A stretch of DNA of 64,000 nt from an uncultured Gammaproteobacteria bacterium (GCA_964579845.1 CAZOHC010000001.1:27196-91195), one strand, 5' to 3'; counted from the first letter of the stretch, positions 18,688-51,903 are shown. Numbers and translations are program-made. The notes: generated from the letters alone by a model not told the origin.

Positions 18688-19188
18688 ATGAATGCCTCTG
18701 ATAAAAAATCTCTCCAAAATCCGTTGCGGGTCACGACACTGACATTTCTCCTGCGGAACGATGAAATTCTCTTGGCGATGAAAAAACGAGGATTCGGAGA
18801 AGGGAAGTGGAACGGCATGGGAGGAAAGCCGATGATTGATGAGACCATTATCGATGCTGCGATCAGAGAGACTACGGAAGAAATCGGTGTGACACCGACG
18901 CAGTTAAAAAAAGTCGCAACCCTGAACTTTCATTTTCCCAAAAGGCCGGAATTTCAGGATTGGGATCAACAGGTTATTGTCTTCTTTGTCGACGAATGGG
19001 AAGGCGAACCGAAGGAAACGGAAGAAATGGCACCGAAGTGGTTTCCTATAGCAGCAATCCCGTTTTCTCAGATGTGGCCTGATGACATCCACTGGCTGCC
19101 TAAAGTCATCCAAGGTAACATTATCACCGGAGAGTTTCACTTTAATAAAGAGCTGCAGCTTGCATCTTTCTCGGTAACAGAAGAGTGA
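18688..19188 (+). CDS. NUDIX hydrolase (MutT-like)
   Basis: Nudix box GGKPMIDETIIDAAIRETTEEIGV; start at MNASDKK with TATAAT 6 nt upstream; stop TGA. Confidence 0.8.
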   Translation: MNASDKKSLQNPLRVTTLTFLLRNDEILLAMKKRGFGEGKWNGMGGKPMIDETIIDAAIRETTEEIGVTPTQLKKVATLNFHFPKRPEFQDWDQQVIVFFVDEWEGEPKETEEMAPKWFPIAAIPFSQMWPDDIHWLPKVIQGNIITGEFHFNKELQLASFSVTEE

Positions 19189-40010: not shown

Positions 40011-40087
40011 TGTACCAGGGGTGGGGCACGATCCCACGACCTCAGCGTTATGAATGCTGTGCTCTAACCAGCTGAGCTACCCTGGCT
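40011..40087 (-). tRNA. tRNA with CAU anticodon (Met, or Ile2/lysidine type); non-canonical details (G1.U72, A31.C39, T-loop ATCGTGC)
   Basis: Reverse complement GCCAGGGTAGCTCAGCTGGTTAGAGCACAGCATTCATAACGCTGAGGTCGTGGGATCGTGCCCCACCCCTGGTA folds as a cloverleaf: canonical D-arm, anticodon loop TTCATAA, 5-nt variable loop. Confidence 0.6.
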
Positions 40088-40176: not shown

Positions 40177-40187
40177 CTCCTTTACGC

Positions 40188-40253
40188 GCGGGGTAGTGTA
40201 AGGCGCACGCGAGGCTCATAATCTTGCAGTCTGGTTTCGATACCAGCCCCGCA
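40188..40253 (+). ncRNA. 66-nt tRNA-like small RNA (7-bp acceptor-like stem, anticodon-like loop CUCAUAA, UUCGAU T-loop-like hairpin; compacted D/T arms)
   Basis: GCGGGGTAGTGTAAGGCGCACGCGAGGCTCATAATCTTGCAGTCTGGTTTCGATACCAGCCCCGCA; 5' GCGGGGU pairs with 3' GCCCCGC; flanked by its own promoter and terminator; about 7 nt too short for a canonical tRNA. Confidence 0.45.
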
Positions 40254-40263
40254 ACACAGAGGA

Positions 40264-40295: not shown

Positions 40296-40817
40296 ATATA
40301 ACCTGAGGTTACCATTCTTTTGCACAACCTTCCAGTGAGGGAAAGAGAATGTGTTCAAAATAACCCATGTACCAGGTGTTACCTCGTTCTCCAATTTTTT
40401 CTCAAGACGACGCATCATATACGGTATACCGTAGATGATGAGGATGTCATACTTTGAAAAATCTTCACGCCAGAAGTCCCGCCAGTACACGCTTGCTTTG
40501 TTCTCTACACCGGCTTGCTTGATACGAAATCTGGAATAGATAACCAAGAGCGGGTTAACTTCGTAGCCATGAACTTCAATGCCTTGCCTCGCCAGTGCGA
40601 GCAATATCTTTCCATCACCTGAGCCCAGATCAACCGCTTTCTTCCCTGTGTGGTCCCCGATCATCTCCAGCAGATTTGCAACTGTTTTATCATCGGTTGC
40701 GACATACGGTGCACCACGAGAAGCGATGTAGACGAGAAATAGAAGAACGAGAACTTCAACCAGGAGAAAAAGTGTCAATATAACCAAAAGAACAATGTGT
40801 GCAACTGATAATTCCAT
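40287..40817 (-). CDS. membrane-anchored class I SAM-dependent methyltransferase
   Basis: N-terminal TM; motif I VDLGSGDGKILLALARQG; 176 aa. Confidence 0.7.
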   Translation of the reverse strand: MELSVAHIVLLVILTLFLLVEVLVLLFLVYIASRGAPYVATDDKTVANLLEMIGDHTGKKAVDLGSGDGKILLALARQGIEVHGYEVNPLLVIYSRFRIKQAGVENKASVYWRDFWREDFSKYDILIIYGIPYMMRRLEKKLENEVTPGTWVILNTFSFPHWKVVQKNGNLRLYRK

Positions 40818-41158
40818 TACATAAAGAGCTTATACCACTGCAGCCACACAGGATCAGGCGGAGCAATTTCCTGCTGCGTTTCCTCTTCTTGACCACCAGA
40901 TGCAGGCAGAACGATGACCTGCTCCCCCGGCTTGACCAAGAAGAGACTGTTTCGAGCTTCCTGCTCGAGGTATGCAGGGTGCTCTACCTTCTCTAATTGC
41001 TGCTGTAACATACGTTGTTCCTGCTTTTCCCTCGCCAATTCTTTTCGAGCTGTAACGACTAAATCCTGTTTCTGCCATAAACGGTGGATTGAGTGATAGA
41101 AGTTATTAATGATAAACAGAAAGAGGATGATACTGATAAAAAAGGTTATTTTTTTCAT
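40817..41158 (-). CDS. ftsB: septum formation initiator (FtsB/DivIC family)
   Basis: N-terminal TM, coiled-coil, then YLEQEARNSLFLVKPGEQVIVLP, the conserved DivIC/FtsB C-terminal motif. Confidence 0.65.
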   Translation of the reverse strand: MKKITFFISIILFLFIINNFYHSIHRLWQKQDLVVTARKELAREKQEQRMLQQQLEKVEHPAYLEQEARNSLFLVKPGEQVIVLPASGGQEEETQQEIAPPDPVWLQWYKLFM

Positions 41159-41241: not shown

Positions 41242-42102
41242 ATGGACGCTGTAAAAGTGCGCGAAGCACATCAAAAATTTACTGACTTTTTAAAAGGAAA
41301 GAAGCACTCTAATGCTACTATTTTAGCATACGGGAAAGATATCGATCAGCTCGCCTCTTTCCTCGAAGAGTTGGACAAACACCATATCCACGAAGTAGAA
41401 AAAGGTGATATTGAGGCATTTTTAGCAAAAATGTCTGACAAAGGCTACACCCCGAAATCAATTTCCCGCAAACTCAACTCAACCAGGACATTTTACCGAT
41501 TCCTTAAAGTCAATGAAATCATAACAGACGATCCATCACTGCTTGTTTCACACCCACGCTATGAGCTTGCTCCTCCCCGTATTCTGAAACCGACTGAGTA
41601 TCGGGCACTTCGCGATGCTGCTCGTAATGATGCCCGCATGTACGCAATTATCGAGATTCTGTTGCAGACAGGCATCCGAATCGGAGAGCTTGCCGCACTC
41701 AGAATGGAAGATATTCAAGGTGACACGCTCCGTATCAGGCCGATGGAAAAACATGAAGAGCGGGTTGTTCCTCTTAATCGGCCGGCGAAAGATGCGTTAA
41801 ATCGCTACCTGGCACAACGCCCGCAGGTGGAAGATACACATGTTTTTATCACTAAATCAGGCAAACCGTTCCTCGTCCGAAATATCAGAACCGCGATCGA
41901 GCGATATTTCCGTCTCGCCGGTATCGAAGGTGCAAAAGTAAATGACCTTCGCCACACTTTCGTTGCACACCACATCAAACACGGTGTTTCACTGGTCCTT
42001 CTCTCAAAAGTACTGGGACATAAGAGAATCTCAACGACAGAACGATACCTTGAATACGTCAAAGAGCGCGCGAAAGACACAACACAGCTTTCAGAATTAT
42101 AA
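41242..42102 (+). CDS. xerC: tyrosine site-specific recombinase XerC/XerD family
   Basis: 286 aa; N-terminal core-binding (SAM-like) domain; catalytic-domain motifs LLQTGIRIGEL, HDLRHTFV, LGHKRISTTERYL. Confidence 0.85.
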   Translation: MDAVKVREAHQKFTDFLKGKKHSNATILAYGKDIDQLASFLEELDKHHIHEVEKGDIEAFLAKMSDKGYTPKSISRKLNSTRTFYRFLKVNEIITDDPSLLVSHPRYELAPPRILKPTEYRALRDAARNDARMYAIIEILLQTGIRIGELAALRMEDIQGDTLRIRPMEKHEERVVPLNRPAKDALNRYLAQRPQVEDTHVFITKSGKPFLVRNIRTAIERYFRLAGIEGAKVNDLRHTFVAHHIKHGVSLVLLSKVLGHKRISTTERYLEYVKERAKDTTQLSEL

Positions 42103-43210: not shown

Positions 43211-43360
43211 AATGATGAGATTATACCATACAAACCAACAGGAGAACTACTACAGGCTTGGAGGTGGGAGTACTTGGGATCCCTGGCCGCACTCGGCGAC
43301 GACGAAAGCACTGCAGACGGGGAACCAAGGACCACTTCGTTACCTGCCTTGCTTTACTTG

Positions 43361-43432
43361 TGCGTCCGCTTGGGATCGAACCAAGGACCACTACTTTATA
43401 AGAATAGCGCTCTACCACTGAGCTACGGACGC
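43361..43432 (-). tRNA. tRNA-Ile with UAU anticodon
   Basis: Reverse complement GCGTCCGTAGCTCAGTGGTAGAGCGCTATTCTTATAAAGTAGTGGTCCTTGGTTCGATCCCAAGCGGACGCA: perfect 7-bp acceptor, canonical D and T arms (TTCGATC), anticodon loop CTTATAA. Confidence 0.7.
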
Positions 43433-43515: not shown

Positions 43516-45882
43516 TTATAATCGGGATCGCTGAGCAATCTCTGCTTCAACTGTCTGGACAGAGCGACCGTATTTGAGTCGTGAAAGCTCTTTTATAAGC
43601 TCAGCAACCCTCGGATTCATGAGGGCTTTTTCTTTTGAGATATCTTTGGTCGTATCAAGTGAGAATGGCGGCACAGGTTCACCGTTGACAAGCGTCCGCA
43701 TGTAGCAGTTAAAGCGATCGATATTAATCAAATCAGCTTCACCGAATGTCGGCTGGAACTCATGCTGCAGATAATTAGCATCAGTAACACCAACTCTGAA
43801 AGAAGCAATCGTACCGACATTACCGAAAATAGCATTCTTCACTTCCTCTTCCATCTGTCCGACAAACTGGTTCGCAACGATCAGGCTCAAACGATATTTC
43901 CTCGCTTCTGAGAGAATTTGTGCAAAGTCAGGCGTTGCGAAGTTTTGGAACTCGTCAACATACAGGAAAAAATCCCGTCGTTGATCCTGCGGCATATCCT
44001 GTCTGCTCATCGCTGAGATTAAGATCTTCGGAACCAGAATTAATCCCAAAAAACTCGAATTTTCCTCACCGATTTTACCCTTGGAAAGGTTTACCAGCAG
44101 AATTTTCCCGGTATCCATTACCTCACGGAAGTTAAACGCATTATCAGATTGCCCGATAATATTTCTGATCATTTTATTGGTCACAAACCGACCGAATTTG
44201 GAGACGATATAGTCAAGCGTCTCTGATTTATGGAAGTCAGACGTATTTGCGATCTGATCAGTCCAGTACCGCCTGATAACCGGGTCCTCAACTTTCGGCA
44301 ACAACTCCTGCACAAAACTCTGATCCGTAAGCGCCCGGACTACCTCCATAAAGGTTGCTCCCGGCTCATACATACAGGTCAACATCGCATTTCTGATTGC
44401 ATGCTCAAACCGAGGCCCGATAATTCCTGTCTTGTTCGGGTCAAAGAGCTTGTACATAAGGCCGATGACTGAGGAGACCATCAGATGCTTCTGCTGCTCG
44501 GTTTTCCCTTCAAGTAAATTAAATCCCATGGGACGCTCCGTATCCCCCGGATCAAACAAGATAACGTCTTCTGCGCGGTGTGGCGGCACCATCTGTAGGA
44601 TATCTTCGATCAAGTCCCCGTGCGGATCGACAACAGCCAATCCTTCGCCGTTGTTAATATCCTGCATGATCATCTGCTTTAAAAACTCTGACTTACCGGT
44701 ACCGGTTTTTCCGATGATATAGGTATGACGCATTCTGTCTTCCCGGCCGACATACACAGGCTTGGAGATGCCACGAAACGTACTCTTTCCCAGATACAGT
44801 CCTTCGGTCGGAATATTAGCAGGAGCAGGCGCACGCTTCGAGTTGACCCAGTGGATACCCGGTGTTGTGACTGATTTATTCGGAAAGTGGAAAAAGGTTG
44901 CGAGTTCTTCCGTATTCAGAATTGAGGTGTGCCCCCAGAGCGGAAAGTACCGATAAATAAAATCCTGCATGAAAAGCCCTTTCATGCGAATCTTCGATTT
45001 CGTGAACGAATTCTGGCCGCTGTACTGTTCCAACGAATGAACGATATTATCAAGGTGTGCACTTGCTGCTTCTTTGGTGCTTGAGGAGACGACGACCCGT
45101 ACTGTGGTCAAAAACCCCGGCTTACCCACTTTTGTCTCAATCCCCTCCAGCTCTTTCGAGTCAGCTGAATATTTGGCGGTTTCCGGGTTTGCTTCATTTT
45201 TTTTGGTTTTGGCGATATAGTCTTTCCCGGCTTTCTTCCAGTCAGAACCGGCAGGACTGATCATCAGTTGGATAGCAGCGCCTTCTCCCGGTCCCATTTT
45301 GGCAAGAATTGAGGTGAGTGAGGACAGCGGATCAACCGGCAGATCTTTAAAGACTTTGAGCGGTTTGTAATCAGCGTCTTTTAAGCGCAGACTCGCAAAA
45401 GCAACCTTCCCATCCTCTGAAAAGATGTTATACTCGCCGCCTACTAACGCATCTGAACGCTGTTTTGCTGCAGGATCGGTTATCTCGACAACTTCAGCCT
45501 CAGGATAGGCACCGTTTATCTGTTTTTCGACAAAGTCACGCAGTTTTTTCGGGACATGGATATAGAATCTGATATCGCCGGGCTGTCCGACCATCTCAAA
45601 GGTGAGGTGAGGTGCCCGCTTCATCTGATACCACTTCGGCTGCTTTCCGATCGATGCGAGCGAGGAAAATAACTGTTCTGCAGCATCTATCTTTACTTCA
45701 TTATCACGAGGAAGGGCAACCTGCAGTAACGATGATTCCAGTGAGTCCTGTTCTCTTTTTTTATTTCGAAGCCACAGCCGAAGCGCTAAGAAGCCGACAA
45801 ATCCCAGTCCGGCAAATACTCCGATCGCCAGCAGACTTATGATGAGGGTGAGCATTAATTGATTGATTGTATCTAGGTCCAT
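43516..45882 (-). CDS. membrane-anchored FtsK/HerA-superfamily ATPase with a TraD/VirD4 (type IV coupling protein)-like NBD and TraM-recognition-like C-terminal region
   Basis: 788 aa; N-terminal TM helix, about 350-aa unassigned domain, Walker A IIGKTGTGKSEF, Walker B LYVDEFQNF, C-terminal block RKYRLSLIVANQFVGQ...IASFRVG. Confidence 0.7.
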   Translation of the reverse strand: MDLDTINQLMLTLIISLLAIGVFAGLGFVGFLALRLWLRNKKREQDSLESSLLQVALPRDNEVKIDAAEQLFSSLASIGKQPKWYQMKRAPHLTFEMVGQPGDIRFYIHVPKKLRDFVEKQINGAYPEAEVVEITDPAAKQRSDALVGGEYNIFSEDGKVAFASLRLKDADYKPLKVFKDLPVDPLSSLTSILAKMGPGEGAAIQLMISPAGSDWKKAGKDYIAKTKKNEANPETAKYSADSKELEGIETKVGKPGFLTTVRVVVSSSTKEAASAHLDNIVHSLEQYSGQNSFTKSKIRMKGLFMQDFIYRYFPLWGHTSILNTEELATFFHFPNKSVTTPGIHWVNSKRAPAPANIPTEGLYLGKSTFRGISKPVYVGREDRMRHTYIIGKTGTGKSEFLKQMIMQDINNGEGLAVVDPHGDLIEDILQMVPPHRAEDVILFDPGDTERPMGFNLLEGKTEQQKHLMVSSVIGLMYKLFDPNKTGIIGPRFEHAIRNAMLTCMYEPGATFMEVVRALTDQSFVQELLPKVEDPVIRRYWTDQIANTSDFHKSETLDYIVSKFGRFVTNKMIRNIIGQSDNAFNFREVMDTGKILLVNLSKGKIGEENSSFLGLILVPKILISAMSRQDMPQDQRRDFFLYVDEFQNFATPDFAQILSEARKYRLSLIVANQFVGQMEEEVKNAIFGNVGTIASFRVGVTDANYLQHEFQPTFGEADLINIDRFNCYMRTLVNGEPVPPFSLDTTKDISKEKALMNPRVAELIKELSRLKYGRSVQTVEAEIAQRSRL

Positions 45883-45890
45883 GATCCTCC

Positions 45891-46370
45891 TTAGATGACC
45901 TTTTCCATGCCGAATTTTTCCAGGACATACTTGGAGAGCATTGCAAGCCAGGTCTTGGAGTTACCGGGGTTACCTGAGCTTTCTTTCTTTGCCTCTTCAT
46001 AGTTCATTGCTGTCGGGAGCTGAACAGATGGTTGTGTCGGTTCGAGCGTCGTCTGCGGCTCAAAAGAGACAGGAACCGCATCTTTTGCCGGCCTGACACC
46101 TGCATCTCTCGCCTCTTCAGGAATACTCGGCTGTTCGTGTGAGGGTACGACCTCAACACCTGCTTCTTTCACATCCGGCGGAAGCTCCGGTGATGCTTCT
46201 GCAGGATGAGGTGAAACATACTCACGCACCTGCCCTATCGGTCCGTGTTCTTTATTACCGATACTCACAGGGGCAACCGGTTCAGGCTGCTGCTTCGCCG
46301 TATCAGTCTGAGACTGCGTTGGTAAAGCGGTATCAACGGCAATGTTTTGTGTGGAAGTGTTGGTGTCCAT
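45891..46370 (-). CDS. hypothetical low-complexity Pro/Glu/Thr-rich protein with a C-terminal amphipathic helix
   Basis: 159 aa; 9 nt upstream of the ATPase gene on the same strand. Confidence 0.4.
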   Translation of the reverse strand: MDTNTSTQNIAVDTALPTQSQTDTAKQQPEPVAPVSIGNKEHGPIGQVREYVSPHPAEASPELPPDVKEAGVEVVPSHEQPSIPEEARDAGVRPAKDAVPVSFEPQTTLEPTQPSVQLPTAMNYEEAKKESSGNPGNSKTWLAMLSKYVLEKFGMEKVI

Positions 46371-46449
46371 ATAGGATTATCTTAGCATGAATACGAGGGA
46401 GACACAATGAAATTAGCCTTATACCAAGCTTACAGCATGCTTATAATCG

Positions 46450-47685
46450 TCAGCACCTGACATCCCGCCGACAGGAAACATTCTGACAGTTGGTTATGAG
46501 CTGATTATACGGTCGTTTATTTTCGAATTTGCAGTGAGGACAGGAAAACGTCAGTTTCCCGTAGCGATCGGTTGCTACCCCGAATTCCATAACACTGAAA
46601 GGAACACTCATTCCGAGGTCTAGTTTACCTCCTCCTGAGAAAGCTTCCTGAGCACCTATACTGAACCCTCCTGAAAACCCACATCCTGTCGTTACCTCTC
46701 TGACAGGCAACCTTCCCCAGTAGCTGATCTGCTCGTCGATACTTTCTTCATCAGCAACCCCCCGCTGATACAGTGTTACCCATTTCCCCGTATCTCGTGT
46801 TTCCCGCTCGAGGTGATCTGCTTTATTCATAATCGTATTTAACAACGTATTTCTCTCCGTAATCGCCCATGGACGTGTGGCGAGAACATTAATATATGCC
46901 AAAAAAAGCGGCTCACATCCTTTAAGGATGTATTCATAGTCCTCACGTGACAGTGTCGTATGCTCCTTATGAAGCACGTTGTGAATATCATCAGCTGAGG
47001 TAAGTCCTGTCTGATCAGGATCAATCATGATCGGTTTACTGAGGAAGTAAGCATCAAACGGCAGATCGGTATATTCATGTTCAGCAAAATACCCGGGAGA
47101 AACTGAGGCAGCAAAGTCGATATACTCATGCCTTTCCAGTGCGGAGCTATAACGGGAAACTTCGATGACACGCTCATCGTTCTTTTCTCTGAGGGTGAAA
47201 ATGTCATAAAAATTATGTTTATACTCCGAATCTTCCCCACCAGGAGGCGAAAGCGAGATCATCCTCGTCCCGACAGGTGTTGTTTCAATCCCGAGAACTT
47301 CCTGTATCTTCGAAAACCCATCCAACTCAGCCTGTTCACGCATTCTGTCATGGTCTGACGAATTTTCATATCGATAATCCCGTCCGCGAGCAAAAACAGT
47401 CTCCAAGGGTTCATCTGAGAATGTGCTATAGATTTTCCCGCCCATGACCCTGTCTTCCCGACTGCTGATACCGGCGTTATACCGTTCACCAAGCATTGTC
47501 TTGAGATTAAAGACCGTTTCCCCATCCAGCATAGCTTTTTTCGCTGCATATTCCTCGGGTAATGTGTCCTTAAGTGCATTGAGCGCTTCGTACTTCTGTG
47601 AATCAAAATCCGGATTATATGTCAGATGACGCTCTTTTTCTGTTCGAACTTCTTTTACATATGGTCTGCTTTCTATTGTTTGCAT
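46450..47685 (-). CDS. hypothetical soluble protein with a C-terminal CPHC...C..C zinc ribbon
   Basis: 411 aa from ATG 47685 (SD GAGGAG inside the leader hairpin); no recognisable catalytic motif; first gene downstream of riboswitch-like leader 2. Confidence 0.5.
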   Translation of the reverse strand: MQTIESRPYVKEVRTEKERHLTYNPDFDSQKYEALNALKDTLPEEYAAKKAMLDGETVFNLKTMLGERYNAGISSREDRVMGGKIYSTFSDEPLETVFARGRDYRYENSSDHDRMREQAELDGFSKIQEVLGIETTPVGTRMISLSPPGGEDSEYKHNFYDIFTLREKNDERVIEVSRYSSALERHEYIDFAASVSPGYFAEHEYTDLPFDAYFLSKPIMIDPDQTGLTSADDIHNVLHKEHTTLSREDYEYILKGCEPLFLAYINVLATRPWAITERNTLLNTIMNKADHLERETRDTGKWVTLYQRGVADEESIDEQISYWGRLPVREVTTGCGFSGGFSIGAQEAFSGGGKLDLGMSVPFSVMEFGVATDRYGKLTFSCPHCKFENKRPYNQLITNCQNVSCRRDVRC

Positions 47686-47840
47686 AAAAAAACTCCTCAC
47701 TACCGAGGAGCATGCATCATACTGCACTTCTACTCGGAAGATTTCTTGGGCTCTGACTTATCTCGCCTGCGGCGGAATCACAGTTGCGGTACAGTGCTTG
47801 AATCACACAAGCTTCACCTCTGACTTTTCCAGATTACTTC
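47686..47840 (-). ncRNA. cobalamin-riboswitch-like leader 2 (aptamer core GGUGAAG...AUUC...ACCGCAACUGUGA; expression platform = SD-sequestering hairpin plus U7 abutting the ATG)
   Basis: Minus-strand RNA GGAAAAGUCAGAGGUGAAGCUUGUGUGAUUCAAGCACUGUACCGCAACUGUGAUUCCGCCGCAGGCGAGAUAAGUCAGAGCCC...GCUCCUCGGUAGUGAGGAGUUUUUUUAUG; its 5' end overlaps the last codons of pduO; paralogous to leader 1. Confidence 0.45.
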
Positions 47841-48356
47841 TTTTTTTTGATCATGATAATTAATCAGACGTGCACTACTGAAAAGCAGGTCAGACAGCCG
47901 ATTCAGGTATCTGAGAACATCCTCTTCTATCGGCTCTTGTTGTATCAGCAAGACAATACATCTTTCTGCCCGCCTGCATACTGTTCTGGCATGATGGAGC
48001 GCTGCGCCTCCTGTTCCGCCGCCCGGGAGGATAAAGTTTCGAAGCGCGGGAAGTTCAGCGGTTTGCGCATCGATCAGTGACTCAAACACCGAAATTCGTT
48101 CACCAATCCCCGACAGCTGTGTTGCAGATGGGTTTGAGAGATAGGATCCGATCGTGAAAAGGTCATGTTGAATCGCTGTCAGCTCTTGCAGTAACGCACT
48201 CTCACGATCGGGAAGTGTTGCGAGCACCATCCCCAGTACACTATTTAATTCATCAACCGTACCGTATGACTCTACCCGGAGATCTGATTTCAGGACGCGC
48301 TTTCCTCCCATGAGTGACGTTTTTCCCTTATCCCCTGTTCGTGTGTAGATTTTCAT
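47814..48356 (-). CDS. pduO: ATP:cob(I)alamin adenosyltransferase, PduO type
   Basis: MKIYTRTGDKGKTSLMGG...; 180 aa; PduO/MMAB family N-terminal signature. Confidence 0.85.
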   Translation of the reverse strand: MKIYTRTGDKGKTSLMGGKRVLKSDLRVESYGTVDELNSVLGMVLATLPDRESALLQELTAIQHDLFTIGSYLSNPSATQLSGIGERISVFESLIDAQTAELPALRNFILPGGGTGGAALHHARTVCRRAERCIVLLIQQEPIEEDVLRYLNRLSDLLFSSARLINYHDQKKEVIWKSQR

Positions 48357-48895
48357 TCTTTTTTTAATGCCGTCGCACGTGGTATGAAAAATGCGCGGAC
48401 GATTTCATACCCTCCGAAGAAAAGAGCCGTATACATGAGATCACTCAGGACGGTGTTCCTAAAAAACGGAAGTGCATAGTAATAGGCATCCATCAGTCCT
48501 GACACGGTCTTTGGGTACAGCAGTCCTCCCATCCAGACACCGAAGTTCGTCAGAAGAAAGAACAACAATGACGACGTTAATGATGCGAGCAGGACAGTCG
48601 AAACCCTGGTGTGTTTTTTCAGTGCCATACCCAAAAACGCCGTCAAGAGAAAACTGCCGTACACGTAAGGCATCGTATCATGGAAGCCGATAATCACATC
48701 CGAGAGAAACATAGCACCGAGCGGAAGGATGAGGGCATATCGTTTGTCCAGGTAAAAACCGCTGAACAGCGCCAAGGCAGCGATTGGGGCGAAGTTTGGT
48801 GCATGCGGTATGACACGAATCAGTACTGCAACAGAGATGATGACAAGCGGCAGCAGGAACGGGGTGATCGCACTTAGTAGGTTTCTATTTTCCAT
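48353..48895 (-). CDS. solitary ECF-S-component-like membrane protein (BtuM/DUF6580-like, putative vitamin transporter)
   Basis: 180 aa, about 6 TM; N-terminal PHAPNFAPIAALALFSG pattern of the DUF6580/S-component type; lies between the DUF4430 and PduO genes. Confidence 0.45.
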   Translation of the reverse strand: MENRNLLSAITPFLLPLVIISVAVLIRVIPHAPNFAPIAALALFSGFYLDKRYALILPLGAMFLSDVIIGFHDTMPYVYGSFLLTAFLGMALKKHTRVSTVLLASLTSSLLFFLLTNFGVWMGGLLYPKTVSGLMDAYYYALPFFRNTVLSDLMYTALFFGGYEIVRAFFIPRATALKKE

Positions 48896-49275
48896 TCGAT
48901 ACGGTCTCCTTCCTTCGTAATGTATTGTTGAGGCCCGACAGGAGAAGAGGTTCCGTTCACATAAAATGCCCAGAACTCTCGCTTGTCAGCTTCTGCTTCC
49001 CGTCCGTTAATTGAGGTAACAAGGCCGGCCTCGTCCTGCGTTATCTGATAGTAACGCTCAAGAAGTAATAAAGCATTGACGCCTTCCTGTCCTTCATAGG
49101 AATAGTGAGGTTCTGCTGCAGGACGTATTTCTTCTTGCGAAGCAGGCGTCGTATTCCGGCTCGCAGTCTGTGATGGTGTGAGACGAACAAGCGTAGCTCC
49201 GACAGCGATCAACGTCACGACAGAGACAACTATGAGTATCAGTTTATATTTATGTTGTTGTAACACGTTCTGCAT
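48874..49275 (-). CDS. DUF4430 (transcobalamin/IF-beta-like) putative cobalamin-binding protein
   Basis: N-terminal anchor; ALLLLERYYQITQDEAGLVTSINGREAEADKREFWAFYVNGTSSPVG...GDRIEWK matches the DUF4430 signature (W.YYVNG...GD.I.W). Start at MQNVLQQ (49275) directly after the U-run of leader 1. Confidence 0.7.
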   Translation of the reverse strand: MQNVLQQHKYKLILIVVSVVTLIAVGATLVRLTPSQTASRNTTPASQEEIRPAAEPHYSYEGQEGVNALLLLERYYQITQDEAGLVTSINGREAEADKREFWAFYVNGTSSPVGPQQYITKEGDRIEWKIETY

Positions 49276-49419
49276 AAAAAAACTCCTCACCCGAGGAGTA
49301 TAGTCATCGTACGAACGATGCTTCCTGCTCGGGATAGAAACTACTGACTCGTTTTCTGACTGTCACAGTTACGGCATAGCCACGGACTTGCACCGTGCTT
49401 TCCGAATCAGTAGGATAGA
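49276..49419 (-). ncRNA. cobalamin-riboswitch-like leader 1 (GGUGCAAGUCC...GCCGUAACUGUGA core; hairpin+U7 platform that sequesters the SD)
   Basis: Minus-strand RNA ...GGAAAGCACGGUGCAAGUCCGUGGCUAUGCCGUAACUGUGACAGUCAGAAAACGAG...CUCCUCGGGUGAGGAGUUUUUUUAUG fills the 145-nt nrdJ/DUF4430 intergenic region; resembles the RF00174 core (GGUGnnAAUCC, CCGCnACUGU). Confidence 0.5.
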
Positions 49420-51903
49420 TTAACATTCGCTATAGCCACAACTATAGCATTTTTTACAACCCTCTTCATACGCAAAACTACTGGTTCCGCACTCAGGGCA
49501 GATATCAAATAGGTTTGTTGTGGAGCTTGATAGATCATAGCCTTTTTCCTGAGGGATCATCGCAAGCTGTCCTTGAGGAACTGCTGCTTCGGAAGAAACT
49601 TGCTCTGAGGGTTCATCATGTTTCACACCGCTTCCGTTCGTGCTCCCTGCTGATACTGTCGCCGGAGACTGGAGCACCTGCGCGACAACTTCTTTATCTT
49701 CGACTTTCCCGTTTACTTTAAAATTTGAGTGCTTCGCAAGTGTTTTCGCCACGGCATCCGGTAATGAGCGAACCCGATTCTCTCCGAATCCGATGCTTCT
49801 TGCACCGCCCAGACCTGATAATTCCGAGATGATCTCTCGCATACGCTCTCGTGTCGGAACAGGGCTGTGAACACGGAGAACAAAAGAAATCATTCTGCCT
49901 AAAGCATCTGCCATTGCCATCAGGTCTGAACCTGATTTACCGTTATTAATAAAGACCTCAAACGGCTCGTTCTTCTCGTTGTGATTAATCGTGATATAGG
50001 TTTTCCCCGTCGGACTGGCTGTTTTATATGTGGTTCCGGTCAGCATCATCGGTCGGGACACACGAGGTGTGGCAGGAATAACAGGTTCAACAGGCACTGA
50101 TTTTTCAGCAGCTTGTTTATCAACAGCAGCATCTTTCTTTTTCTCATCAACGCGCTCTAACACACCAGCACGTGAGCCGTCGCGGAAATACGTTACACCT
50201 TTCAGCCCCATATCATAGGCCATCATATATAACGTCTTCACGTCATCAATGGTATGAGCATTCGGTGCGTTAACGGTTTTGGAAATCGAAGAATCAATAT
50301 ACTCCTGAGCAACTGCCTGCACTCGAGCGTGCTCAAGCGGCGTCAGGTCATTGGATGAGACAAAGTAGTCAGGTCGCTCTTCAGTCGGGTGAGCGTTTTT
50401 CCAGATCTCAAGCAGTGGATGGTACAGGATGTGCTCGCCTGTTCTGTCACGTCGAACAAAGGTAAACTCATATACAGGCTCAATTCCTGATGAAACACCG
50501 GAGAGGAGGGATGTGGTTCCGGTTGGAGCAATTGTTAACAGGACAGCATTGCGAATACCGTTTTTCGCGATTTTGTTCTGGATTGCTTTCGGGAGTGCTT
50601 TAATGTGATGGCCTTGCATGTATTTGTCCGCATCAAACATCGGGAACGCACCTTTTTCTTTCGCAATATCAGCTGATGCGTCGTATGCATTATCTCTGAG
50701 TGTTGCGAAGATCTTCTTAATAACCGGAAGTGATTCCTCAGAGCCATATCGGATTTTCATTTTGATTAGAGCATCTGCAATACCCATAATTCCCAGACCT
50801 GTTCTTCTGATATCTTTTGCACATTTTTCATTTTCTTTATAGAAGTAATAGGTATCGTCAATAACATTGTCTAAAAAGCGCATCGCGATACGCACGTCAT
50901 TCCCGAATGCCTCGTAATCAAACGTACCAGCTTTATCATTGGCGAGGTCTTCTCCTTTGACATACGCTGAGAGGTTCATCGCACCGAGATTACAGACAGC
51001 CCATGGGCCAAGCGGCTGTTCTCCGCATGGATTGGTCGCCTGCAGTCGTTCAAAATACCAGGTATTACTCCATTTATTTGAGCGCTCCAGGAAGTGAAGG
51101 CCGGGCTCAGCTGATTTCCAGGCAGCGGTACAGATCAGATCCCAGAGTTCCCGCGCTTTAACTGTTTTATAGACTTTCACTGCTCCGCCGAGTTCTTTCC
51201 ACTTTGCCATATCGCCGTCCCAGTCTGAATCATACTTCGGATCATCAAGATCAGGATACATGAGGTCCCAGTCCGAATCATCTTTGACAGCCTGCATAAA
51301 TGAGTCAGAAATACAGACAGAGAGATTCGCACCGTTAATTTTTGAGACATCCTGTTTTACCGTAATAAACTCCTCAACATCAGGATGCCAATCCCAGAGC
51401 ATGAGCATGGTAGCACCGCGACGCGAACCACCCTGCTGCACAATATCATGGGTTGCGACTGAGAAGAGGTTTGCCCAGTTGACAGGCCCTGAGGACGTCC
51501 CGTTTACCTTACGGACACGAGCTCCACGAGGTCGGAGTGAGGATAGGTTCAGCCCGACCCCGCCTGAGCGAGCTTGAATTTCAACTAATTGGCCAAGGGA
51601 TTCGAGGATACCGCCACGGGAATCTTTCGGAGATGGAATCACAAAGCAGTTAAAATACGTAACCTGGTAATCAGTTCCTGCTCCTGAGAGGATACGACCG
51701 CCCGGGACAAATTTAAAATCCGTCATGACGTCGTAAAACTTTTTCTGCCATTCACGGCGGACTTCTTTACTTTCTTGTTTAGCAACCCCACGGGCAACTC
51801 GCTTCCACATCTCTTCAGGAGTAGTCTCCGTCGGATCTCCGGCTTCATTCTTTAAGGAATAGCGATCTAAGAATACTTTTTGTCTGATACCGTCAAGTTT
51901 CAT
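49420..51903 (-). CDS. nrdJ: adenosylcobalamin-dependent (class II) ribonucleotide reductase
   Basis: 827 aa; NCFVIPSP..GGVGLNLSSLRPRGARV, NPCGEQPL, C-terminal C..C...C..C zinc ribbon. Confidence 0.9.
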   Translation of the reverse strand: MKLDGIRQKVFLDRYSLKNEAGDPTETTPEEMWKRVARGVAKQESKEVRREWQKKFYDVMTDFKFVPGGRILSGAGTDYQVTYFNCFVIPSPKDSRGGILESLGQLVEIQARSGGVGLNLSSLRPRGARVRKVNGTSSGPVNWANLFSVATHDIVQQGGSRRGATMLMLWDWHPDVEEFITVKQDVSKINGANLSVCISDSFMQAVKDDSDWDLMYPDLDDPKYDSDWDGDMAKWKELGGAVKVYKTVKARELWDLICTAAWKSAEPGLHFLERSNKWSNTWYFERLQATNPCGEQPLGPWAVCNLGAMNLSAYVKGEDLANDKAGTFDYEAFGNDVRIAMRFLDNVIDDTYYFYKENEKCAKDIRRTGLGIMGIADALIKMKIRYGSEESLPVIKKIFATLRDNAYDASADIAKEKGAFPMFDADKYMQGHHIKALPKAIQNKIAKNGIRNAVLLTIAPTGTTSLLSGVSSGIEPVYEFTFVRRDRTGEHILYHPLLEIWKNAHPTEERPDYFVSSNDLTPLEHARVQAVAQEYIDSSISKTVNAPNAHTIDDVKTLYMMAYDMGLKGVTYFRDGSRAGVLERVDEKKKDAAVDKQAAEKSVPVEPVIPATPRVSRPMMLTGTTYKTASPTGKTYITINHNEKNEPFEVFINNGKSGSDLMAMADALGRMISFVLRVHSPVPTRERMREIISELSGLGGARSIGFGENRVRSLPDAVAKTLAKHSNFKVNGKVEDKEVVAQVLQSPATVSAGSTNGSGVKHDEPSEQVSSEAAVPQGQLAMIPQEKGYDLSSSTTNLFDICPECGTSSFAYEEGCKKCYSCGYSEC

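Follow-up and report, generated by a model that had tools for sequence, protein, structure and literature searches.

What does a cobalamin riboswitch control when the gene behind it has no known B12 function? The question is posed by positions 43,516-47,840 of a 64,000-nucleotide (nt) stretch of DNA (GCA_964579845.1 CAZOHC010000001.1:27196-91195; the whole stretch that was analysed is referred to below as the window), in which a cobalamin-riboswitch-like leader, RS2, is followed on the minus strand by three open reading frames (ORFs) of 411, 159 and 788 amino acids (aa), here named p411, p159 and p788. An earlier note on this DNA, which correctly recognised the leader and the three ORFs, took them for a riboswitch-gated cluster that may have been acquired horizontally next to a tRNA gene and could encode a novel B12-gated translocase or defence module. 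We consider it probable that the region forms the downstream end of a vitamin-B12 locus that was inherited vertically, in a genome of the Levybacteria (Patescibacteria, also known as the candidate phyla radiation, CPR), with RS2 a genuine switch, p411 its target and p159-p788 a separate unit. Genes for PduO, DUF6580 and DUF4430 proteins, a further riboswitch (RS1) and NrdJ lie directly upstream, and the three-gene cluster is therefore the tail of a B12 locus; the earlier note missed both this larger locus and p411 as the gene of interest.

The RS2 riboswitch and p411

The elements on which the argument turns are the following:

47746-47821, minus strand: aptamer of the second cobalamin riboswitch, RS2, which is of the 'RS2 type' and has a short P6 extension (partial RF01482 match, 31.9 bits; model R1, 64.3 bits)
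47787-47791, minus strand: RS2 L5 loop UACCG (A at 47790), proposed kissing-loop partner of L13; UGCCG in the 36 other readable elements
47727-47740, minus strand: RS2 L13 hairpin CUUC-CGAGUA-GAAG (U at 47732); the other elements with a recognisable L13 have CGAGCA or CGAGCGA
47686-47711, minus strand: RS2 terminator/Shine-Dalgarno (SD)-sequestering hairpin GCUCCUC-GGUAGU-GAGGAGU plus U7, ending at the p411 ATG; near-identical to the RS1 and orthologous terminators
46450-47685, minus strand: p411, 411 aa, with an invariant TGCG motif and a C-terminal Zn ribbon whose last residue is an invariant Cys; conserved riboswitch target

A search with a 12-sequence alignment as query yielded 34 p411-encoding loci, to which 8 were added later, giving 42 Levybacteria/Microgenomates loci (L numbers below). 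Two of these, L011 and L013, are cut by contig ends; in all 40 assessable loci a cobalamin riboswitch lies ahead of p411, in the following arrangements:

Riboswitch directly before p411 (14 loci): L003, L008, L009, L010, L012, L017, L022, L027, L029, L030, L033, L038, L040, L041
Both RS1 and RS2, as in the window (subset of the 14): L012, L022, L033, L038, L040, L041
Isolated riboswitch-p411 unit with unrelated neighbours: L020, L028, L032
Riboswitch before PduO/transporter genes, with p411 after PduO: L001, L002, L004-L007, L014-L016, L018, L019, L021, L023-L026, L031, L034, L035, L037; by near-identity L036, L039

The riboswitch precedes PduO or transporter genes in the 23 assessable loci outside the first and third groups, and in 15 of these p411 starts within ~6 nt of the PduO stop codon or overlaps it. 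Within this lineage the p411 family has a cobalamin riboswitch ahead of it wherever its gene goes, be it beside PduO and NrdJ, behind an intra-operonic switch or as an isolated unit, and we regard p411, on this comparative evidence, as the conserved regulatory target of the riboswitch. The earlier note had proposed looking for a riboswitch that travels with the cluster; this holds for p411, but p788 is less consistently linked.

A covariance model (R1), built from 10 orthologous RS2-type aptamers of other genomes with the window copy left out, finds its best match in the 64-kb window at 47746-47821 (64.3 bits, E = 3.2e-16) and its second-best at RS1 (38.4 bits). A match at 18874-18956 (13 bits, E = 0.21) was dismissed as chance, as was a third B12-box-like string at ~34132 on the minus strand, which falls within a coding sequence and is not matched by the model. 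The ten aptamers align closely with the window element, sharing GGGUGAA...GUG.AAUUC...CUGUGCCGCAACUGU, an optional P6 hairpin and then AAGYCAGA.CCCCG. These orthologous elements sit between PduO and p411, and those of L009 (46.6 bits) and L017 (40.1 bits) pass the gathering score of RF01689; the L017 element overlaps the PduO stop codon, as does the 5' end of the window aptamer (stop codon at 47814-47816). All core nucleotides (GUG.AAUUC in L4, the B12-box region GCCGCAACUG and AGUCAG) are present in the window copy save one L5 base, changed from G to A, and its P4, P5 and P6 helices are intact. Across 37 elements, the helices and the closing stem covary: 92.9% of cells are paired, compared with 33-44% in slid controls, and 11 of 15 pairs have changed on both sides.

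We accordingly treat RS2 (47686-47821), as far as sequence can tell, as a genuine second cobalamin riboswitch inside the operon; it is a new representative of a known riboswitch class. With the adenosylcobalamin riboswitches AdoCbl-II (RF01689, clan CL00101) it shares the core GUG..AAUUC loop on P4, CUGUGCCGCAACUG and AGUCAG, the P4, P5 and P6 helices with a closing stem, and apparently an off-switch design working through a downstream hairpin; its orthologous copies, moreover, pass the Rfam threshold. It differs from them in the short P6 extension of the window copy, because of which RF01482 fits it better, in a weakened closing stem and a score under every Rfam gathering threshold, and in its intra-operonic position, where it overlaps the preceding stop codon and appears to regulate a gene of no known B12 function. 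A literature search on Patescibacteria with cobalamin riboswitches returned no papers. In most elements that lie immediately before p411 (RS2 type), a variable hairpin is inserted in P6, and the aptamers measure 76-111 nt (insert seen at 47760-47779 in the window and in the RS2 elements of L003, L008, L012, L022, L029, L030, L033 and L038), whereas most elements upstream of PduO (RS1 type) are without the P6 hairpin and span 57-58 nt; the difference could possibly reflect different ligand selectivity.

RS1, RS2 and the orthologous elements have a common expression platform, made up of a hairpin with a CGAGCA loop (L13), sometimes a spacer hairpin, (A)CUCCUCGG...GAGGAGU, a run of six to eight U and the ATG, a layout that places the SD sequence in the 3' arm of the terminator-like hairpin. 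In RS2 this hairpin (47711-47692, with the SD sequence GAGGAG at 47698-47693), the U7 tract (47692-47686) and the ATG (47685) follow one another directly, much as the earlier note had described. The ATG at 47685, preceded by GAGGAG and U7, is the true start of p411; a longer ORF from a GTG at 47727 begins inside the expression platform. The 36 other elements in which L5 can be read all have UGCCG, a sequence that can pair with the L13 loop CG-A-GCA. Among 39 elements examined, window RS2 alone combines the G-to-A change in L5 with a complementary C-to-U change in L13 (UGC to UAC, GCA to GUA). Complementarity between the L13 segment and the 5' arm of the terminator was seen in 23 of 26 elements (mean z of -3.2 versus shuffles; -1.97 for the window RS2 duplex, with dG of -9.2), which matches the expectation for an antiterminator/anti-sequestor. 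With its complementary L5/L13 change and its intact terminator, SD sequence, U7 and ATG, the window copy looks functional.

The complementarity and covariation suggest how such a switch would work. Without ligand, the L13 segment CCGAGUAG would pair with the terminator 5' arm CUCCUCGG, so that polymerase reads through and the SD sequence GAGGAG stays free. With cobalamin bound, L13 would fold as a hairpin and dock on L5 (UACCG with CG-A-GUA), freeing the 5' arm for the terminator/SD-sequestering hairpin that ends at the ATG. The element would then be an off-switch, with p411 made only when B12 is scarce. In L009 (L009:4733-4860), a mini-ORF of 11 codons, starting at the ATG after the U-tract, lies between the RS2 terminator and p411, which itself starts ~50 nt past the mini-ORF with an SD sequence of its own.

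Several observations speak against a working RS2. Nothing in 47686-47840 reaches an Rfam gathering threshold: the match to RF01482, a family that the earlier note had named for this leader, does exist at 47747-47815 (31.9 bits, model positions 29-95 of 149, E = 4.5e-4 in a 501-nt search) but stays below the threshold of 50, and the window copy scores under every Rfam gathering score. Its closing stem has two non-canonical pairs out of four, inspection of the RS2 type revealed no convincing P1 helix, and the kissing-loop covariation amounts to a single compensatory event. L035 and L037, the two closest relatives found, have lost RS2 at the same position and keep RS1 only, so that RS2 is evidently dispensable and could be decaying in the window. 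It might, then, be a relic, with p411 controlled, if at all, only through RS1 and read-through from PduO. We consider this distinctly unlikely, given that all other core positions are conserved, that the double change in L5 and L13 is complementary, that the L13 hairpin, antiterminator complementarity, terminator, SD sequence and U-tract are all intact, and that six other loci retain RS1 and RS2 together.

The upstream B12 locus and the role of p411

Upstream of RS2 lie the following features:

49420-51903, minus strand: NrdJ, a class II ribonucleotide reductase that depends on adenosylcobalamin, heading the B12 locus (TIGR02504, 591.7 bits; cut-off 399.95)
49341-49413, minus strand: RS1, aptamer of an AdoCbl-II cobalamin riboswitch (RF01689, 51.1 bits; gathering score 36.5)
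49276-49340, minus strand: RS1 expression platform, with L13 hairpin UCC-CGAGCA-GGA, terminator/SD-sequestering hairpin 49299-49282, U7 and ATG 49275
48874-49275, minus strand: DUF4430 protein with an N-terminal hydrophobic segment (PF14478, 52 bits); starts at the ATG after the U-tract
48353-48895, minus strand: DUF6580 polytopic membrane protein (PF20221, 173.6 bits)
47814-48356, minus strand: PduO-type cob(I)alamin adenosyltransferase (PF01923, 194 bits; TIGR00636, 191.4 bits against 108.45)

The minus-strand order of the window, NrdR - NrdJ - RS1 - DUF4430 - DUF6580 - PduO - RS2 - p411, recurs across relatives as NrdR-NrdJ-RS1-(DUF4430-DUF6580)-PduO-RS2-p411, with NrdJ upstream of PduO-p411 in nearly all related loci. 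NrdJ lies above the equivalog cut-off for class II ribonucleotide reductases and PduO above the equivalog-domain cut-off for ATP:cob(I)alamin adenosyltransferases. From their context, the DUF4430 protein is a putative corrinoid-binding or uptake component and the DUF6580 protein a putative corrinoid transporter; a sequence search of the PDB found no relative of the former, and the idea that the latter is a CbrT homologue was dropped, since nothing in the PDB, ECF-CbrT included, matched it in sequence. The mechanical ORF list starts the DUF4430 gene at a GTG inside the riboswitch expression platform (49276-49290); its true start is the ATG at 49275, directly after the U-tract. In L010 (L010:1-3234) and L018 (L018:3555-7088) the NrdJ homologue is split near residue 290-330 by insertions of ~1.2 kb and ~1 kb, respectively, seen as two tblastn segments, which could be an intein or intron.

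RS1 sits 1.6 kb upstream of RS2 and is the sole cobalamin riboswitch called at the Rfam gathering threshold over the window, RS2 appearing in E-value mode; the suspicion of such an element at 49270-49430 voiced in the earlier note was thus well founded. Its L13 segment, too, is complementary to the terminator 5' arm (dG of -12.6, z of -2.2). A promoter scan detected no promoter-like site between the PduO stop codon and RS2, nor any from RS1 to RS2; because of this, and because the RS2 aptamer begins at the PduO stop, RS2 is probably transcribed from the RS1 operon, and p411 would therefore stand behind two switches in series, with DUF4430, DUF6580 and PduO under one switch and p411 under two. 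Tandem riboswitches on one transcript are known, for instance S-adenosylmethionine and AdoCbl riboswitches on Bacillus clausii metE, and tandem thiamine pyrophosphate riboswitches. As there, two ligand-sensing terminators would both have to be read through before the last gene is expressed; here, however, RS1 and RS2 are of the same class and three genes lie between them. The pair would be a natural case of same-class riboswitches in series with intervening genes, which should give graded control.

What p411 does is less readily told. A word-indexed search returned 87 homologues and an exhaustive profile search 568 representatives at 50% identity, nearly all listed profile matches spanning most of the profile; p411 is a soluble protein, and its family occurs in records of Levybacteria, Daviesbacteria and other Microgenomates. 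It evolves fast, p411 being 52% identical to its L035 counterpart, compared with 89% for NrdJ and 91.5% for p788. Invariant or nearly so are S.SP.G...S.Y.HNFYD, the residues H235, H239 and H242 on one helix face, and TGCG (C335); the C-terminal CxxC...C ribbon (Cys4) closes with an invariant Cys as last residue, and the Cys4 site could hold Zn or Fe. The predicted fold contains a PAS-like core. Two motif-based assignments were rejected: a PP-loop reading of SPPGGEDS, as GGxDS is not conserved in the family and the motif falls in a beta-hairpin loop of the model, and an inverzincin reading of HKEH, as the Glu position is variable. In class II ribonucleotide reductases, a C-terminal Cys pair shuttles reducing equivalents. 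The window NrdJ ends CPEC...CKKCYSCGYSEC, and both NrdJ and p411 end in a CxxC...CxxC ribbon with Cys as the final residue; the likeness is one of pattern only, p411 has a single terminal Cys, and BLASTP gave no alignment between the two ribbons.

We favour the view that p411 handles scavenged corrinoid alongside PduO, perhaps capturing or escorting it, removing its upper ligand or reducing its cobalt before adenosylation, because its start lies near the PduO stop, because NrdJ is adjacent and because it combines invariant Cys and His residues with a Cys4 site. Parallels are offered by cytosolic proteins that process or escort B12, among them CblC/MMACHC, BtuM-type Cys-ligated decyanation and PduS/CobR-type cob(II)alamin reductases: the proposed role of p411 would likewise be to prepare scavenged corrinoid for a PduO-type adenosyltransferase, and some metal, cobalt or another, could be ligated by its invariant Cys and His residues. 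No similarity of p411 to any of them was found in sequence or fold, and the role is deduced from how the gene is regulated and coupled to its neighbours. A tentative proposal, which we rate as somewhat less likely than not, is that the family represents a novel class of proteins that process or escort corrinoids and feed PduO. Weighing against it, p411 has no detectable structural relative and no B12-binding motif, and a switch that B12 turns off fits a B12-independent backup function equally well.

Such a backup is a serious rival. p411 might be a B12-independent substitute or a starvation-response factor for times when NrdJ cannot work, acting for instance in deoxynucleotide supply or its regulation; B12 riboswitches are known to repress metE or B12-independent ribonucleotide reductases. 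In keeping with this, p411 but not PduO lies behind the riboswitch in L008, L009, L010, L017, L029 and L030, stand-alone riboswitch-p411 units exist, the double gating in the window would restrict p411 to the lowest B12 levels, and a PAS-like core with a Zn ribbon could suit a sensor or regulator. The closeness or overlap of the p411 start and the PduO stop in 15 loci, however, argues for a joint function of the two proteins, and the predicted fold is unlike ribonucleotide reductases or nucleoside-salvage enzymes; we therefore judge a backup function rather unlikely and keep to corrinoid handling as the favoured role. Riboswitches are among the few function-independent clues for annotating "dark" CPR proteins, and p411, without a family in Pfam, NCBIfam or PADLOC and without a structural relative, is a candidate for a missing step of B12 scavenging or of B12-starvation physiology in ultra-small epibionts whose DNA synthesis apparently relies on B12 supplied from outside.

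The p159-p788 pair and its surroundings

Downstream of p411 the following features were distinguished:

46379-46407, minus strand: promoter-like TTGTGT-N17-TAAGAT, its -10 immediately preceded by TGC and its end 8 nt from the p159 ATG
45891-46370, minus strand: p159, Pro/Glu-rich and mostly low-complexity, with motifs KEHGPI, EAGVE and C-terminal SKxWLxxLSxYxLxKF
43516-45882, minus strand: p788, membrane-anchored DUF8128 plus VirD4/TrwB-like P-loop ATPase (PF10412, 35.3 bits against a cut-off of 20.5; PF01935, PF12696)
43360-43432, minus strand: tRNA-Ile(UAU), conserved syntenic neighbour of p788, the same tRNA following p788 in 11 of 11 related loci
43322-43335, minus strand: 14-nt exact duplicate of the tRNA-Ile T-arm region (GTGGTCCTTGGTTC); two matches against 0.01 expected by chance

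The TraD/VirD4-like character that the earlier note ascribed to p788 is borne out. The protein has one N-terminal hydrophobic segment (residues ~9-34), GKTGTGKS and VDEFQNF, and the domains TrwB_AAD_bind, DUF87 and TraG-D_C all exceed their Pfam cut-offs; precomputed annotation assigns its N-terminal domain to PF26449/DUF8128. It thereby possesses the membrane anchor and TrwB-type nucleotide-binding domain of a type IV coupling protein (T4CP), with all NCBIfam T4CP equivalogs below cut-off (best the CD1115 family, 50.8 against 250, and SXT_TraD, 50.2 against 366) and a match to TrwB (PDB 1e9r) over only 50 residues around the P-loop. No relaxase, VirB4 or other type IV secretion system genes occur among the annotated neighbours in the window (~10 kb), in agreement with the earlier note, or among those in L035, L038 and L040. 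Over 5,700 homologues were found; the best 120 are 70-91% identical, and those among them with a named source are labelled Patescibacteria or Levybacteria, except one labelled Methylomirabilota. A survey of Patescibacteria counted 5,713 VirD4-like T4CP homologues, of which only 148 lie near virB4, and suggested exaptation (PMC12102498). In light of that survey, p788 is of an already described kind, an orphan VirD4-like T4CP homologue of Patescibacteria, and the novelty claimed for a B12-gated translocase or defence module falls away. Like the orphans of the survey, p788 has a transmembrane anchor and a TrwB/VirD4-type nucleotide-binding domain and lies away from virB4 and relaxase genes, as do 5,565 of the 5,713; unlike them, it carries the ~350-residue DUF8128 between the anchor and the ATPase, and in the Levybacteria lineage it is always preceded by p159. 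The latter, which matched no family in Pfam, NCBIfam or PADLOC, has homologues directly upstream of p788 in L003, L004, L005, L017, L030, L031, L035, L037, L038 and L040 and is a fast-evolving conserved partner of p788. An Xer-type tyrosine recombinase (41242-42102) and DivIC/FtsB (40817-41158) are encoded close by; the orphan ATPase might act in chromosome segregation.

Is p788 then under control of RS2? The riboswitch could gate p411-p159-p788 as one module and make the T4CP/FtsK-like translocase B12-conditional, perhaps importing DNA as a source of deoxynucleotides when NrdJ is without cofactor. The three genes are co-directional, with gaps of 79 nt (p411-p159) and 8 nt (p159-p788), no terminator is predicted between p411 and p159, their order recurs in many Levybacteria, including contigs of complete-genome scale, and where p159-p788 are missing, ComF, annotated as competence-related, follows p411. 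Synteny breaks, however, fall at the 3' end of p411. In 11 loci (L001, L002, L007, L011-L014, L016, L018, L019, L021) ComF-tmRNA-SmpB replaces p159-p788 after p411 (tmRNA, transfer-messenger RNA, and SmpB where checked), so that p411 and p159 flank the breakpoint exactly; seven of the 11 have p788 within the fetched stretch, at a distance of 7-8 kb and on the opposite strand. ComF belongs to this housekeeping block, and no RNA element was found in the ~290-nt p411-ComF gaps. Nor does p788 occur next to the three stand-alone riboswitch-p411 units, and in many loci it is not adjacent to p411. Its family is far wider than that of p411 (>5,700 against 87 homologues in the same kind of search) and changes at a much lower rate (identity to L035 91%, against 52% for p411). 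We consider gating of all three genes very unlikely. The further notion of a B12-starvation programme, in which p411 and DNA-translocation proteins (p788/p159 or ComF, one or other of which follows p411 in most fetched loci) obtain deoxynucleotides from imported DNA when NrdJ, the only reductase, lacks its cofactor, strikes us as exceedingly improbable; a corrinoid-related class for p411 is more likely.

A conserved promoter-like motif directly upstream of p159 also argues against common gating. TTGTKT-N17-(TGC)TAAGAT, 6-8 nt before the p159 ATG, is found in the window, L035, L037 and L040 amid diverged surroundings, with only TTGTTG and TAAGAT recognisable in L038; a generic promoter scan missed it, as position 6 of the -10 falls outside its rule, and there is no SD sequence upstream of p159. 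The pattern suggests a promoter for a near-leaderless p159-p788 transcript, and p159-p788 looks like a separate conserved housekeeping pair that adjoins p411 through conserved gene order. Two points weigh the other way: the motif is a sequence pattern only, and since no intrinsic terminator is predicted after p411, read-through into p159-p788 is possible. It is as such possible read-through, in the p411-p159-p788 gene order, that the idea of a B12-gated translocase survives; a false lead is otherwise removed, there being no good evidence for a B12-controlled conjugation-like translocase or mobile element.

Horizontal acquisition of the cluster is not supported, and vertical inheritance is favoured, because of synteny that includes the tRNA and because of flat base composition. 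The tRNA-Ile gene and adjacent fragment on which the earlier note had based this claim are real, but the fragment, 43 nt downstream of the tRNA, bounds no insert, and the block NrdR-NrdJ-...-PduO-p411-p159-p788-tRNA-Ile(UAU)-(PIG-L)-Xer-DivIC is syntenic in many Levybacteria, contigs of >1 Mb included. The GC content stays at 0.43-0.50 across 38-54 kb. The region is neither absent from relatives nor deviant in composition, as an island would be, and the Xer-type recombinase close by is encoded by a chromosomal gene that relatives conserve at 66-94% identity. Compared with L035, identity falls from 94% (Xer), 91.5% (p788) and 89% (NrdJ) through 78% (PIG-L) and 64% (PduO) to 54% (p159) and 52% (p411). 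The tRNA-Ile(UAU) comes after p788 in L003, L004, L008, L009, L017, L030, L034, L035, L037, L038 and L040; in L008, L030 and L038 it lies on the opposite strand, pointing to local inversion. A UAU anticodon is unusual in bacteria, where AUA is mostly decoded by a modified CAU tRNA.

Several CAY.../CAZ... records (L001, L002, L003, L012, L014, L016 and others) are titled 'uncultured Gammaproteobacteria', and one 'Candidatus Eisenbacteria', yet they carry a Levybacteria-type locus with Xer 66-84% and p788 ~70-79% identical; taxonomically, these titles appear to be mislabels. Two divergent tRNA-Met(CAU) genes ~100 nt apart (40012-40086, minus strand; 40187-40255, plus strand) have a similar counterpart near DivIC in L038 and L040, and in L008 a group I intron match (RF00028, 56.2 bits; L008:14252-14444, minus strand) lies ~2 kb past Xer/DivIC.

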